DNA from: a virus
Reading direction: 5' to 3' (one strand)
Length of the DNA: 64,000 bases
Virus record (IMG/VR): IMGVR_UViG_3300037472_000016
Location: 31,216 to 95,215 of that record
This document shows, piece after piece, positions 32,853 to 48,762 of the stretch. The notes under the pieces are model-generated. The model saw nothing but the letters and a program-made list of their open reading frames with translations. It had not been told where the DNA came from and did not search any database. The position numbers and the translations under genes are program-made. How positions within the stretch are numbered: position 1 is the stretch's first letter; the number at the start of each line of letters is the position of its first letter.

Positions 32853-33384
32853 AAATGATTTGGTAGAACACCTTGACCAGATGAACAAGGTTGTATCAAA
32901 ATACTTAGAGGGAAACGATGAGACAAAGATTGCTCGTCAGTTAAGCCTACCCAGGCAAAAGGTCGTGGCCTTTCTGGGGGAATGGCGACAAATGGCATCC
33001 AACAATGCTGCAATCAGAGAGAGGGCCAGAGAAGCCCTTGTAGCCGCTGATACCCACTACAGCAAGTTAATCCAGCAGGCCTATGAAGTTATTGATGAGG
33101 CAGGAAGCCAAGGAAACTTGTCAGCCAAGAACTCTGCTATCAAGCTAATTCTTGACATTGAGTCCAGAAGAATTGAGATGCTGCAAAAGGCTGGTCTCCT
33201 AGAAAATAAAGAGCTTGCCGAAGAGATGATGGAGATTGAGCGCAAGCAAGATGTTCTTATGAGCATCCTGAAAGACATTGCCAAGGACTATCCACAGGTT
33301 CGTGATGAAATCATGAGACGCTTGTCTTCTGCCGCTAAAGAGGGAGAGGCAATCGTTATTGTTCAGAATCCGGTGGTCAAGTAA
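32842..33384 (+). CDS. HTH/helical protein, candidate terminase small subunit
   Basis: N-terminal HTH (ETKIARQLSLPRQKV); coupled to the large terminase. Confidence 0.55.
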   Translation: MSSENDLVEHLDQMNKVVSKYLEGNDETKIARQLSLPRQKVVAFLGEWRQMASNNAAIRERAREALVAADTHYSKLIQQAYEVIDEAGSQGNLSAKNSAIKLILDIESRRIEMLQKAGLLENKELAEEMMEIERKQDVLMSILKDIAKDYPQVRDEIMRRLSSAAKEGEAIVIVQNPVVK

Positions 33385-35165
33385 TGTTTGATGACTTCCT
33401 AGATGCACTCAAGGACAATCCTTTTATAGAGACTCCTGTAGATGTAAAGACATTTGTTGAGGGCGAAGACTACCTTGCACAGCCGCCGCTCTCAAGCATC
33501 CAGTACGACATAGTAGAGGCAATGAGTCAAATCTACCGTCTGGAAGAGTTGCAGCAAGTGATGGGCACCGTTGCTGGACAAAAGCACCACAAGAAGTACA
33601 CCAAGAATGAACTGATTTTGATGCTAGGAAAAGGAAGTGGGAAGGACTTTGTTTCTACTGTGGCCTGTGCTTACGTGGTATACAAGCTTCTCTGCCTTAA
33701 GGACCCTGCAAGGTACTACGGAAAGCCCAGTGGAGACGCTATTGATATTATCAACATCGCCATTAACGCTGCCCAGGCAAAGAACGTTTTCTTTAAGGGC
33801 TTTAGGACAAAGATTGAGAAATCACCCTGGTTTGCTGGAAAGTATTATTCCAAGGCAGACAGTATTGAGTTTGACCACTCTATAACCGTATACTCTGGCC
33901 ACTCGGAAAGAGAGTCTCATGAGGGGCTGAACCTCTTAATGGCAGTTCTAGATGAGATTTCTGGATTTGCTACAGAGGTGGGGACTGGAAACGATCAAGG
34001 AAAAACTGCTGACAACATCTACAAGGCGTTCCGTGCATCAGTAGATTCTAGGTTTCCCGATGTGGGAAAGGTTGTGCTTCTTTCCTTCCCCCGTTATCCA
34101 GGAGACTTTATTTCTCAGAGATACGATAGCGTTATCCTTGAGAAGGAAGTTATTTCAAAGAGTCACAGTTTTATTATGAACGACGAGTTGCCAGAAGATA
34201 TGGAGGGCAACTCACTAGACATTACCTGGGATGAAGACACAATTCTTTCTTACAAGATTCCTGGGGTATTCGCAATTAAAAGACCAACATGGGTCGTCAA
34301 TCCCACCAGAAGAATAGAAGACTTTAAGCTAGCCTTCTATACAGACCTGGGAGATGCCATGATGCGATTTGCCTGTATACCCACCTATAGCTCTGATGCT
34401 TTCTTTAAGCAGGCAGACAAGGTACGTTCAGCAATGACCACGGTGAACCCCCTAGACACCAACAGGAGATTTCTTCCAAACTTTAAGCCTGACCCAGACA
34501 AGAAGTATTTCATTCATGCTGACCTTGCACAGCTTCATGATAAGTGTGCTGTAGCAATTGCTCACGTAGATAAGTGGGTAAACATTCAGGTCATTAAGGA
34601 CTATCAGCAGGTCGCTCCAATTGTTGTTGTCGATGCCGTGGCATGGTGGGAGCCAAAGGTTGAGGGGCCAGTTAATCTTTCAGAGGTTAAGCAGTGGATT
34701 CAAAACCTTAGACGGCTTGGCTTTGACATTGGCATGGTCAGCTTTGACAGGTGGCAGAGCTTTGACATTCAGAATGAACTAAAGCAGGTTGGCATCAGAA
34801 CAGAAACTGTATCTGTGGCAAAGAAGCATTACGAAGATATGGCTATGCTCATCTATGAAGACAGGCTTGCCATGCCAGCAATTGACTTGCTTTTCGAGGA
34901 GTTGACAGAGCTTAAGATAGTTAAGCAGAACAGAGTTGACCACCCTCGTAAAAAGTCTAAGGACTTGGCAGATGCTGTGTGCGGTGCAATTTTTGGAGCT
35001 ATCTCTCACACACCAAAGGACACATTCGGTGAGATAGAGGTCCATACATTTAGGGATAGGCCAAAGACCACGGTAGCGCCACAGGACCATAACGTGGTAC
35101 AATTAACTCCCAAGGAAATGCCGAACGATATAAAAGACTATCTTGACAGTTTTGGCTACCTATAA
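33384..35165 (+). CDS. Terminase large subunit
   Basis: GKGSGKD Walker A, VLDEISG Walker B, HADLA and SFDRWQS nuclease motifs, DHP...SKDLADA. Confidence 0.9.
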   Translation: MFDDFLDALKDNPFIETPVDVKTFVEGEDYLAQPPLSSIQYDIVEAMSQIYRLEELQQVMGTVAGQKHHKKYTKNELILMLGKGSGKDFVSTVACAYVVYKLLCLKDPARYYGKPSGDAIDIINIAINAAQAKNVFFKGFRTKIEKSPWFAGKYYSKADSIEFDHSITVYSGHSERESHEGLNLLMAVLDEISGFATEVGTGNDQGKTADNIYKAFRASVDSRFPDVGKVVLLSFPRYPGDFISQRYDSVILEKEVISKSHSFIMNDELPEDMEGNSLDITWDEDTILSYKIPGVFAIKRPTWVVNPTRRIEDFKLAFYTDLGDAMMRFACIPTYSSDAFFKQADKVRSAMTTVNPLDTNRRFLPNFKPDPDKKYFIHADLAQLHDKCAVAIAHVDKWVNIQVIKDYQQVAPIVVVDAVAWWEPKVEGPVNLSEVKQWIQNLRRLGFDIGMVSFDRWQSFDIQNELKQVGIRTETVSVAKKHYEDMAMLIYEDRLAMPAIDLLFEELTELKIVKQNRVDHPRKKSKDLADAVCGAIFGAISHTPKDTFGEIEVHTFRDRPKTTVAPQDHNVVQLTPKEMPNDIKDYLDSFGYL

Positions 35166-38653: not shown

Positions 38654-38667
38654 CTAAATAGGTTAAG

Positions 38668-38712
38668 AGGCAGGCTCATTGGTATAGCGCCGGTGGGCCT
38701 GTTCTCGTTTTT
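38668..38712 (+). terminator. Terminator after nrdF
   Basis: CAGGCTCATTGGT-ATAGC-GCCGGTGGGCCTG followed by TTCTCGTTTTT. Confidence 0.65.
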
Positions 38713-38737
38713 CCGGGGCATGTGGTACACTATCATA

Positions 38738-38866
38738 ATGGAAAACTTGCAATACTGGGAAGACCTAGCAAAGAAGCTAGAAGATAAAGAGTACAGAGAA
38801 GAGTTCTTCTTACAATCTCTGGCAACTGTCTGGATTGACAAAGACGAGCAACCCATGCTATGGTAG
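38738..38866 (+). CDS. Small hypothetical protein (42 aa), leaderless
   Basis: TGGTACACT 6 nt upstream; MENLQYWEDLAKKLEDKEYREEFF... Confidence 0.5.
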   Translation: MENLQYWEDLAKKLEDKEYREEFFLQSLATVWIDKDEQPMLW

Positions 38867-38885
38867 CAGGACACAATAAAACAAT

Positions 38886-38958
38886 GCCTTGTTAGTTCAG
38901 CGGATAGAATACCTCTTTCCTAAAGAGTAGGTCACTGGTTCGAGTCCAGTACAGGGCA
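38886..38958 (+). tRNA. tRNA-Arg(CCU)
   Basis: GCCTTGT/ACAGGGC acceptor; loop TT-CCT-AA; T arm ACTGG-TTCGAGT-CCAGT. Confidence 0.85.
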
Positions 38959-38992
38959 CGCATTGAGTGATGATGTTTGTCATTCTTTTCAA

Positions 38993-39066
38993 CGGAATGT
39001 AGCTCAGCTTGGTAGAGCGTTCGGTTTGGGTCCGAAAAGTCGCAAGTTCAACTCTTGTCATTCCGA
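38993..39066 (+). tRNA. tRNA-Pro(UGG)
   Basis: CGGAATG/CATTCCG; TTCGG-TTTGGGT-CCGAA. Confidence 0.9.
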
Positions 39067-39068
39067 CT

Positions 39069-39139
39069 GTGGCTGTCGTCCAAAGGCAGGACAACAGTTT
39101 GTGGAACTGTGAATGAGGGTTCGATTCCCTCCGGTCACC
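39069..39139 (+). tRNA. tRNA-His(GUG)
   Basis: GTGGCTG/CGGTCAC with C73; ACAGT-TTGTGGA-ACTGT. Confidence 0.88.
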
Positions 39140-39162
39140 GACACAATTAAATAGTGTATACT

Positions 39163-39258
39163 GTAATTAGCTCCACACAGGGCAAGGTCGCACTTTAGGA
39201 TGGTTTGTTACCAAAATTCCGGGCCATATGCAAGGTTCTGTGTGGGGCATTACTTTTT
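39163..39258 (+). ncRNA. Putative ~90-nt rod-like ncRNA
   Basis: TATACT just upstream; 14-bp closing stem GCTCCACACAGGGC/GTTCTGTGTGGGGC; inner stem ATGGTTTG/CGGGCCAT; followed by a U-tract. Confidence 0.5.
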
Positions 39259-39259
39259 G

Positions 39260-39337
39260 GTCATGAGCGCTGGGACGCAAAGGAGACTGTAAATCTCTTT
39301 CCAATCGGATAGACGAGTTCGATTCTCGGGCATGGCA
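39260..39337 (+). tRNA. Atypical tRNA-Tyr(GUA)
   Basis: GGAGA-CTGTAAA-TCTCT; variable arm TCC-AATC-GGA; T loop TTCGATT; short D arm and 6-bp acceptor. Confidence 0.6.
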
Positions 39338-39535
39338 CTCAACGGTAAAATGTTGTGATACAATTGGAGCTATGATGAAAAAGCAAGTACAGAGAGCCTG
39401 GACAAACGTCCGTCTCTTTGGGCTGCTTGGAGTCAAGTAAAAAAGCTACTTGACAAAATCAATTGCAGCCCCTAGAATATATCTGGGGGCTTTCTGCATA
39501 TGCACTTTTAAAAATAAACAGAGAAAAATTTGTAT

Positions 39536-39609
39536 GCTTCTATAGCTCAGTTGGTCAGAGCATTCGCCTCTTAAGCGAAGGGTCCAAAGTTCAAGTCTTT
39601 GTGGAAGCA
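39536..39609 (+). tRNA. tRNA-Lys(CUU)
   Basis: GCTTCTA/TGGAAGC; TTCGC-CTCTTAA-GCGAA. Confidence 0.92.
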
Positions 39610-39622
39610 CGCAATACAAAAT

Positions 39623-39696
39623 GCCCCTGTAGCTTAGCTGGTTAGAGCATCCCGCTCATAACGGGACGGTCCTCGGTTCAAGTCCGAGTGGGGGCA
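39623..39696 (+). tRNA. tRNA with CAU anticodon (elongator Met or Ile2)
   Basis: GCCCCTG/TGGGGGC; TCCCG-CTCATAA-CGGGA; no initiator features. Confidence 0.88.
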
Positions 39697-39697
39697 C

Positions 39698-39793
39698 TAT
39701 CCTGGCGGTTCAAATCCGCATAAAAGCTGGTTGCAAACGGCTTTAGTCGCTGCTTTACTACGCGGGCGGTGATACCCATGGCGGGGCAGGGTA
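39698..39793 (+). ncRNA. tRNA-like RNA with permuted arm order
   Basis: Closing stem TATCCTG/CAGGGTA encloses a T arm, a GCA hairpin, a 7-bp acceptor-like hairpin and a D-like arm. Confidence 0.55.
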
Positions 39794-39802
39794 CAGTTTT
39801 AT

Positions 39803-39876
39803 GCTTCTATAGCTCAGGTGGTCAGAGCAACGCTCTTTTAAAGCGTGGGTCCTCGGTTCGAGTCCGAGTGGGGGTA
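39803..39876 (+). tRNA. tRNA-Lys(UUU)
   Basis: ACGCT-CTTTTAA-AGCGT; acceptor rich in G-U pairs. Confidence 0.85.
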
Positions 39877-39887
39877 CGCAAGAAAAT

Positions 39888-39959
39888 GTACCTATGGTGT
39901 TAACGGTAGCATGGCGGATTCCAAACCCGCTGGTTCGGGTTCAAATCCTGATGGGTGCG
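39888..39959 (+). tRNA. tRNA-Trp(CCA)
   Basis: GTACCTA/TGGGTGC with G73; loop TT-CCA-AA. Confidence 0.8.
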
Positions 39960-39993
39960 CTAAGGTGGCAACAGCCTTAAAATGTTGCATCCT

Positions 39994-40064
39994 GGGGTAT
40001 TAGCATAGTGGTAATGCACGCGCCTTCCAAGCCTGTTAGGGGAGTTCGATTCTCCCATACCCCT
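39994..40064 (+). tRNA. tRNA-Gly(UCC)
   Basis: GGGGTAT/ATACCCC with U73; loop CT-TCC-AA; one C-C mismatch in the anticodon stem. Confidence 0.82.
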
Positions 40065-40097
40065 CGAACCAAGTATTTCTCTTAATATTTGGTTTAC

Positions 40098-40181: not shown

Positions 40182-40253
40182 GGTTCGATAACTCAGAGGA
40201 AGAGTGCCTGCTTTACACGCAGGAGGTCGGGATTTCGAAATTCCCTCGAACCA
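40182..40253 (+). tRNA. tRNA-Val(UAC)
   Basis: GGTTCGA/TCGAACC; CCTGC-TTTACAC-GCAGG. Confidence 0.9.
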
Positions 40254-40357
40254 CTAGCCAGTATTGATAATAAAACACCAGCTAGCCTTCTAGCCGGTAT
40301 TGTATTGTCAAAAGTATTGGGTGCGTATTAGATAGATCAAAATAAAGGAACTTACGA

Positions 40358-40430
40358 GGGGGATTAGCTCAATTGGTAGAGCGCCTGCTTTGCAAGCAGG
40401 AGGTCAGGAGTTCGATTCTCCTATCTTCCA
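40358..40430 (+). tRNA. tRNA-Ala(UGC)
   Basis: GGGGGAT/ATCTTCC with G3-U70; CCTGC-TTTGCAA-GCAGG. Confidence 0.93.
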
Positions 40431-48649: not shown

Positions 48650-48762
48650 GCCCCTGTAGCTCATTGATAGAGCACCGAACGGCAGACGACAGCGGATTAG
48701 TCCTCGTAAAAGGCTACGCACTGTATCGGTTGTAGTGAGTTTGATTCTCACCAGGAGCACCA
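48650..48762 (+). ncRNA. tRNA-Thr(CGU)-like RNA with a 55-nt anticodon arm and encoded CCA
   Basis: GCCCCTG/CAGGAGC-A-CCA; D arm GCTC/GAGC; T arm GTGAG/CTCAC; long nested arm with apical CT-CGT-AA. Confidence 0.75.

Follow-up and report, generated by a model that had tools for sequence, protein, structure and literature searches.

A putative non-decoding element assembled from tRNA modules, with its T arm on the 5' side, in the tRNA array of an uncultured actinobacterial phage

The tRNA clusters of phages can include stable RNAs that are not tRNAs. The species 1 and 2 RNAs of T4 (rnaC and rnaD) and the tRNA-like stable RNAs of T5 are co-transcribed with the adjacent tRNAs, released by tRNA processing and conserved within their phage groups. 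A different arrangement of tRNA modules is found in the YrlA RNAs, where nearly invariant T and D stem-loops are separated by one acceptor-like stem-loop, sometimes with a V stem-loop before the T stem-loop, and where the Ro60-binding stem has a 5' GNCGAAN0-1G motif (PMC4201824). The genes for YrlA RNAs lie on the same strand as the Ro60 gene, no more than about 4 kb away from it (PMC4201824). Circularly permuted tRNA genes are known from Cyanidioschyzon merolae (Soma et al. 2007, as reviewed in PMC4090602), and permuted tRNAs mature via a bulge-helix-bulge motif and a circular intermediate (PMC4090602).

Here, we examined a 96 nt element at positions 39698-39793 (+ strand) of the window, the whole 64,000 nt stretch of DNA that was analysed, which is part of a 95,215 bp IMG/VR virus record (IMGVR_UViG_3300037472_000016) estimated to be 88% complete. 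The element lies between two tRNA genes of an uncultured phage, whose host is probably an actinobacterium, judging from a WhiB gene and from a terminase that shares 53% identity with its counterparts in Streptomyces BE-cluster phages. Genes for the large terminase and a class I ribonucleotide reductase (RNR) are found upstream of the tRNA array, and those for an HNH endonuclease, holin, dCMP deaminase, WhiB, thymidylate synthase and tmRNA downstream. ARAGORN and Rfam found 15 tRNAs and called nothing between tRNA-Met(CAU) (39623-39697, +; 64.1 bits), which has its 3' end at 39696/39697, 1-2 nt before the element, and tRNA-Lys(UUU) (39803-39877, +), which starts a 9 nt spacer after it. This gap suits release of the element by processing of the flanking tRNAs, as the preliminary description had proposed. 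No canonical tRNA-Cys had been noticed in the window, and the whole 95 kb record also has none. A sigma-70-like promoter, TTGACA-17-TAGAAT (39450-39478, +; 11/12 consensus matches), precedes tRNA-Lys(CUU), and no + strand terminator-like site was found between it and the element. Co-transcription of the element with the tRNA operon is plausible on this basis. The coding potential across the element is limited to spurious 33 and 44 aa frames that overlap the tRNAs.

Several other features of the window were recorded. At 39260-39338 (+), Rfam and, at default settings, ARAGORN missed a low-scoring tRNA-Tyr(GUA) whose D arm is reduced and whose anticodon stem has 6 bp; this odd gene is probably real because it has clear homologues in related phage contigs (L071 and L073 at 6982, L074 near 10625). 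A long rod-like hairpin (39154-39258, +) lies between tRNA-His and this tRNA-Tyr and is present in the fold of 39140-39460. Further downstream, a tRNA-like sequence with a much lengthened anticodon arm and an encoded CCA (48650-48762, +) has a weak fold (z -1.25) and was not called by Rfam.

The 5' strand of the closing stem (TATCCTG, 39698-39704, +) is acceptor-like, and its pairs, one of which is G-U, have probabilities of 0.66-1.0. It runs without a linker into the T arm (GCGG/TTCAAAT/CCGC, 39705-39719, +; pair probability 1.0), which has the G53-C61 pair and the T54-psi55-C56-R57-A58 consensus. After the linker ATA comes hairpin 1 (AAAGCTG-GTTGCAAA-CGGCTTT, 39723-39744, +), with a 7 bp stem (pair probabilities 0.82-1.0) and an 8 nt loop, GTTGCAAA, that is anticodon-loop-like (GCA or UGC). 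A single A separates it from hairpin 2 (GTCGCTGCTT-TACTACGC-GGGCGGTGAT, 39746-39773, +), which has 10 bp, five of them G-U, and the 8 nt loop TACTACGC. Another A leads to the D-like arm (CCC/ATGGC/GGG, 39775-39785, +), the weakest helix (3 bp; probability 0.6), with a 5 nt loop containing GG; it is preceded by UA, like U8 and A9 of a tRNA, and followed by one G, like G26. The 3' strand of the closing stem (CAGGGTA, 39787-39793, +) is followed by C and the 9 nt spacer. The sequence features listed in the preliminary description were thus all found in place, and the structure drawn there is exactly the minimum free energy (MFE) structure returned by RNAfold. Sequence and fold also bear out its description of a non-canonical, tRNA-derived structured RNA in which the T arm comes first and a D-like GG loop last.

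When folded without constraints, the MFE and centroid structures of the element are the same five-helix junction (-38.5 kcal/mol; z -2.55), which 5/200 shuffles equalled; 500 dinucleotide shuffles gave z -2.63 (p 0.016). The frequency of the MFE structure (500 shuffles) was 0.25 (p 0.03), or 0.31 (p 0.004) with the 3' tail added, and the ensemble diversity was 4.7 versus 20.7 in shuffles (p 0.018). The true tRNAs for Met, Lys and Trp were poorer than the element on every fold measure. Overall, helix pair probabilities are 0.9-1.0, apart from 0.6 in the 3 bp arm and 0.66 at the outermost closing-stem pair, and the helices are retained when the element is folded within the Met-to-Lys precursor. 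All of the predicted pairs (31/31) form with no mismatch or bulge. Because 7/31 of them are G-U, the reverse strand has no stable fold (-21.9 kcal/mol; z +0.38), and any structure is therefore that of RNA from the + strand, which also carries the tRNA array. A reverse-strand tRNA at this position, with no fold on that strand, was ruled out. A 12 nt internal tandem duplication (GGCTTTAG/TGCTTTAC) was unsupported by Tandem Repeats Finder.

Inside the closing stem, the order is T arm, hairpin 1, former anticodon arm (hairpin 2), short variable stretch and GG-loop stub, so that the T and D loops have exchanged places. The closing stem abuts the T arm directly, and the two could therefore stack to give an 11 bp acceptor/T minihelix of normal polarity, with the remainder of the element inserted in the 3' strand. 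Standard tools do not recognize this arrangement as a tRNA. ARAGORN made no tRNA call on the whole element, even at -ps70, and RF00005 had no match to it at E<=10. Loose-threshold Rfam matches to mir-485, mascRNA and a partial tRNA-Sec (E>4) were discarded as noise.

The T-arm sequence, GGTTCAAATCC, is identical to the T arms of many real tRNAs. A slipped copy of the tRNA-Met 3' end was considered as its source, and tRNA-Met ranked only 15th among 215 tRNA 3' ends, which gives this origin no specific support. Hairpin 2 is identical at 21/26 positions, with one loop insertion, to the anticodon arm and start of the variable loop of the window's tRNA-Val(UAC) (p 0.006 in shuffles over 16 tRNAs), and tRNA-Ala(UGC) aligns nearly as well. 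This significant similarity indicates that hairpin 2 probably originated as an anticodon arm and variable loop of the Val(UAC)/Ala(UGC) type and gained 1 nt in the loop. The preliminary description had taken the hairpin at 39746-39773 to be a closed acceptor, and that assignment gives way to the tRNA-Val/Ala anticodon arm and variable loop (p 0.006). Hairpin 1 had no significant similarity to tRNA segments. The two candidate anticodon loops, those of hairpins 1 and 2, are both 8 nt; the canonical loop is 7 nt. Thus, as a scrambled tRNA would, the element has tRNA-homologous segments, lies in a tRNA array and cannot decode.

The neighbouring genes carry signs of exchange. The 5' 27 nt of tRNA-Lys(UUU) are of the Lys type and nearly identical to tRNA-Lys(CUU), and its 3' 30 nt are 28/30 identical to the tRNA-Met at 39623-39697. 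Four G-U pairs are found in its acceptor because the 3' end is Met-type. This Lys/Met chimera shows that the array recombines. Divergence from the closest contig (see below) is also mosaic: 38654-40069 differs at 5/1416 nt (0.35%), spacers included, and the next spacer differs by approximately 15%. tRNA-Val(UAC) and tRNA-Ala(UGC) have a common 41 nt block of anticodon arm and variable loop (40198-40238 and 40375-40415, both +; 85% identical), which looks like recruitment by anticodon shift. The spacer between these two genes (40255-40357, +) contains a long hairpin (z -3.1) and has 16 substitutions relative to the closest contig, several of them compensatory in the stem; from these changes it appears to be a structured element retained in an otherwise fast-diverging spacer.

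When the element was used as a query in blastn and nhmmer searches (81 loci), megablast and blastn searches of INPHARED phages and exact and degenerate pattern searches of IMG/VR, only one near-identical contig was returned. This sole other copy is in IMGVR_UViG_3300037862_000030, which is approximately 98% identical over 10.8 kb. Seven further loose-pattern matches in IMG/VR were ordinary tRNAs followed by a chance GTTGCAAAC. The contig also has approximately 1.07 kb of extra DNA (L082:8956-10027) at about 33635, within the large-terminase ORF (33384-35165), which could represent a mobile element, such as an intron, intein or homing endonuclease, inserted within the terminase gene or beside it. 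The two copies of the element differ by one substitution in 96 nt, 39764 G>A in hairpin 2, which changes U-G to U-A and keeps the pairing in the MFE register and the ancestral register alike; A is also the base at the aligned position of tRNA-Val and tRNA-Ala. The change says nothing about constraint, because the whole block 38654-40069 is of low divergence, with only 5/1416 positions differing.

Beyond this contig, the closest relatives found in IMG/VR and JGI metagenomes share 77-78% identity in the RNR small subunit, the gene for which adjoins the array. A covariance model built from the element (R1) had no match in approximately 230 loci around the RNR gene, in 50 whole related IMG/VR records (completeness of 90% or more in three) or in Streptomyces phage Coruscant, and its single weak match (L118, E 1.5) is within a ZIP-transporter coding region and was attributed to chance. 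The structural conservation in related phages by which the preliminary description would have the element judged was thus not seen in these approximately 230 loci and 50 records; this absence is weak evidence, because the adjacent RNR protein of these relatives shares only about 77% identity with that of the phage. A protein search revealed an intermediate RNR small subunit cluster at 88% identity, with contigs of up to 37 kb, and this cluster is absent from IMG/VR. A further idea, that the element carries a host tRNA 3' end as an attP, was dropped: the T loop plus TAAAAGC, searched in 185,579 prokaryote genomes, gave two chance matches in flavobacterial coding DNA. No integrase gene was found in the phage.

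In several related phages, a conserved tRNA-like gene of approximately 67 nt takes the place of tRNA-Gly(UCC) (L066:6248-6314, L070:8644-8710, L057:9834-9900, L074:10145-10211, L046:10753-10821 and L077:5649-5716). Acceptor, D and T arms are present, the anticodon arm is reduced to a stub of 2-4 bp, and the stems show covariation between contigs. When a covariance model (R2) was made from this gene, the tRNA-Gly(UCC) of other relatives scored next best and the element was not matched. The gene seems to descend from tRNA-Gly and to have lost its decoding role. RNAs that come from tRNAs but do not decode are therefore both generated and retained among these phages.

The best explanation, which we hold with a little less than even confidence, is a scrambled pseudo-tRNA particular to this lineage, which the operon transcript would carry and which maturation of the tRNAs on either side would free as a stable by-product. 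We prefer this reading because the element is made of tRNA parts (a perfect T arm and a hairpin like the tRNA-Val/Ala anticodon arm) and is not a tRNA (no ARAGORN or Rfam match, 8 nt loops); because the array recombines, as seen in the Lys/Met chimera, the common Val/Ala arm and the mosaic divergence; because the only other copy is in an approximately 98% identical contig and R1 gave no credible match in the relatives searched; because no TROVE, Ro-like, RtcB, RNA ligase or integrase gene was found in the record; because co-transcription is plausible; and because relatives carry an anticodon-less tRNA derivative at the tRNA-Gly place. Duplication and recombination shuffling the phage tRNA array would have produced a non-decoding RNA built from tRNA modules, namely an acceptor-like 7 bp stem, a real T arm, an anticodon arm copied from the Val/Ala type and enlarged by one loop base, another anticodon-like hairpin and a GG-loop stub. 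It would be transcribed from the promoter at 39450 within a Lys-Met-...-Asn precursor, and 3' processing of tRNA-Met together with the RNase P cut at tRNA-Lys(UUU) would release it. Its fully paired ends may then protect it, so that it would accumulate as a stable by-product of approximately 96-105 nt, and enzymes that act on tRNA ends may trim it too if the 11 bp acceptor/T minihelix forms. It would have no Ro60 partner and no decoding role.

Like the tRNA pseudogenes and chimeras of phage arrays, such as the Lys/Met chimera and the tRNA-Gly derivative of the relatives, the element is built from tRNA segments, occupies a tRNA slot and is unrecognized as a tRNA by standard tools. Unlike them, it has its arms in a scrambled order (T arm 5', GG-loop arm 3') and contains two anticodon-like hairpins, and all of its stems are intact rather than eroded. 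Compared by description with rnaC and rnaD of T4 and the stable RNAs of T5, it differs in being an orphan without conservation in its group. A relic is not what every observation would suggest. Decay predicts mismatches in stems, yet 31/31 pairs are intact; the fold is stabler and better defined than those of the adjoining true tRNAs, and the structure is confined to the transcribed strand. The full T-loop consensus has been kept and a GG loop is available for docking, while the closing stem meets the T arm without a linker and the spacing is like that of a tRNA gene. The substitution at 39764 keeps pairing, though its place in a low-divergence block gives it little weight, and absence from relatives that are 77% identical in RNR is compatible with selection in this lineage.

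The same observations lend themselves to a working tRNA mimic that is independent of Ro60, which we regard as a serious possibility though a less probable one; it comes close behind the pseudo-tRNA, given the element's wholly intact stems and unusually sharp fold. In such a mimic, the acceptor/T minihelix and an elbow formed by the T loop and GG loop would let the RNA be handled by RNase P, the CCA-adding enzyme, TruB/TrmA and tRNA-binding proteins, and the two protruding anticodon-like hairpins with their 8 nt loops would act as baits that cannot be cleaved or do not decode, with host anticodon nucleases and modification enzymes among the possible targets. In its favour are the exceptionally well-defined, strand-specific fold with zero mismatched pairs, the intact T-loop consensus, G53-C61 pair, UA linker, GG loop and single G before the closing strand, the tRNA-like spacing within an active-looking operon and a substitution (39764 G>A) that preserves pairing. 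The phage group also retains another non-decoding tRNA look-alike with covarying stems. However, because the two known copies are near-identical, covariation evidence for the element itself is nil, and the element is missing from relatives. The fold support is moderate (p about 0.01-0.03 before correction for multiple testing), the closing helix would be found about 7% of the time by chance (see below), and the D-like arm is weak (probability 0.6). Nor is there a candidate partner protein nearby, the neighbours being RNR, the HNH endonuclease, holin, deaminase and WhiB.

A more specific form of the mimic seems unlikely to us, namely that the element is the first 'mirror-wired' tRNA mimic, an acceptor/T-arm minihelix with the body on the 3' rather than the 5' strand. 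This body would comprise a pair of anticodon-like hairpins, their loops enlarged, together with a GG loop docking on the T loop, and the RNA would serve as a Ro60-independent bait or competitor for tRNA-recognizing enzymes, such as host anticodon nucleases, in an infected aquatic actinobacterium.

The structure could also be an accident, with leftover fragments of a T arm and an anticodon arm in an ordinary spacer and a closing stem and hairpin 1 that pair by chance; the stretch would then matter only as a spacer and not as an RNA. In 1.5 Mb of related DNA, about 25/358 T arms had a perfect 7 bp mirror partner, in which the 7 nt just upstream of the T arm pair 35-110 nt downstream, and the closing helix alone is therefore an event of approximately 7%. 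The whole-fold statistics correspond to approximately 1-3% before allowing for the choice of one spacer among several, and the thermodynamic support is thus moderate. A chance fold accords with these figures, with an energy z-score of only -2.6 and with the lack of conservation. It nevertheless requires several coincidences together, namely two independent 7 bp helices, perfect nesting of all the helices, a match of the element's ends to the inter-tRNA gap and an ensemble diversity as low as that observed (p about 0.01-0.02). Chance is not needed to explain the T arm or hairpin 2, both of which were inherited from tRNAs as hairpins. On balance, we consider a purely accidental fold improbable.

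The preliminary description had raised a YrlA-like class, and a YrlA-type Y RNA, in which a permuted tRNA-like module tethers a Ro60/Rsr protein, now appears very improbable. The element does resemble YrlA in that a closing helix encloses a T stem-loop first and a D-like arm last, the T stem-loop having the tRNA T-loop nucleotides and a G-C closing pair; both RNAs are tRNA-derived and non-decoding, and YrlA too can sit among actinobacterial phage tRNA genes. However, the Rfam YrlA model (RF02553; gathering score 69 bits) had no match at E<=10 to 39680-39810 (131 nt) and none on the element in array-wide or genome-wide searches. The GNCGAAN0-1G motif (PMC4201824) is absent, with no CGAA anywhere in 39698-39793. 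In place of the long bulged stem of YrlA there is a plain 7 bp helix, acceptor-like and with tRNA-like spacing rather than an opened anticodon stem. Two hairpins, one of them homologous to an anticodon arm, stand between the T and D arms where YrlA has one acceptor-like stem, and only 3 bp (probability 0.6) make up the D-like arm. Neither TROVE (PF05731) nor the Ro-like protein of Coruscant had a match in the 95 kb record, which is 88% complete, nor did RtcB, and the proposed search beyond the window for a Ro60/TROVE or RtcB gene came back empty within that limit.

False positives of the YrlA model on tandem-tRNA junctions have been warned of (Chen et al. 2014, PMC4201824), and RF02553 does score such junctions in this array, for example Arg-Pro (38930-39018) at 22 bits. 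A full-length but sub-threshold RF02553 match (15.6 bits) at 39088-39194 overlaps the start of the rod-like hairpin at 39154-39258. Streptomyces phage Coruscant (L174, NC_070782.1), a distant cultured relative, encodes a Ro-like protein and two RNA ligases (81095-82705, 87955-88608 and 102058-103176) in a dispersed tRNA region, and RF02553 found no Y RNA there at E<=0.01; a partner RNA of this protein, if there is any, is uncatalogued. The model is thus not sensitive to every phage Y RNA, and this, like the Ro-like gene of Coruscant itself, counts somewhat in favour of a YrlA-type RNA here. Its silence on the element accordingly carries less weight than the lack of the protein and the motif.

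A permuted or split tRNA-Cys gene that matures by circularization or ligation had been suggested by the TTGCAAA-like loop of hairpin 1, by the lack of tRNA-Cys in the phage and by a T-arm segment that, as in Cyanidioschyzon merolae, lies upstream of a D-like segment. ARAGORN called no tRNA in any of the 96 rotations of the element at the default threshold. At -ps90, a 73 nt 'tRNA-???' was returned with a 2 nt anticodon and a 5 bp acceptor with two mismatches, in which GCTTT/AAAGC served as acceptor and the GG-loop hairpin as anticodon arm, helices that differ from the MFE fold. The YrlA and tRNA model searches proposed earlier gave no Rfam match on the element, and its circular permutations gave no proper tRNA in ARAGORN, only this sub-threshold call. 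CysRS uses U73 of tRNA-Cys. With 0/96 rotations called, an 8 nt loop in hairpin 1, C rather than U73 after the closing stem, no cloverleaf from the rejoined ends as in the eukaryotic genes of C. merolae, no match in the record to RtcB or either RNA-ligase family (PF01139, PF09414 and PF09511; a host enzyme is possible) and none of the bulge-helix-bulge structure that permuted tRNAs need (PMC4090602) noticed on informal inspection, a permuted tRNA-Cys is scarcely credible.

As far as the two leading readings are concerned, two near-identical copies do not decide between a working tRNA mimic and a recombination relic, and the relic is the one we tentatively favour. A T arm and a D arm inside a helix do not by themselves make a Y RNA. 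Phage tRNA arrays are increasingly viewed as tools for counter-defence and for tuning translation, and odd tRNA look-alikes recur in them without explanation. If the element is a relic, it is a clean snapshot of the scrambling of tRNA modules by recombination in a phage tRNA array. If it is functional, it would extend the known design space of tRNA mimicry to a wiring that places the T arm 5', includes two anticodon-like arms and has no Ro60 partner.
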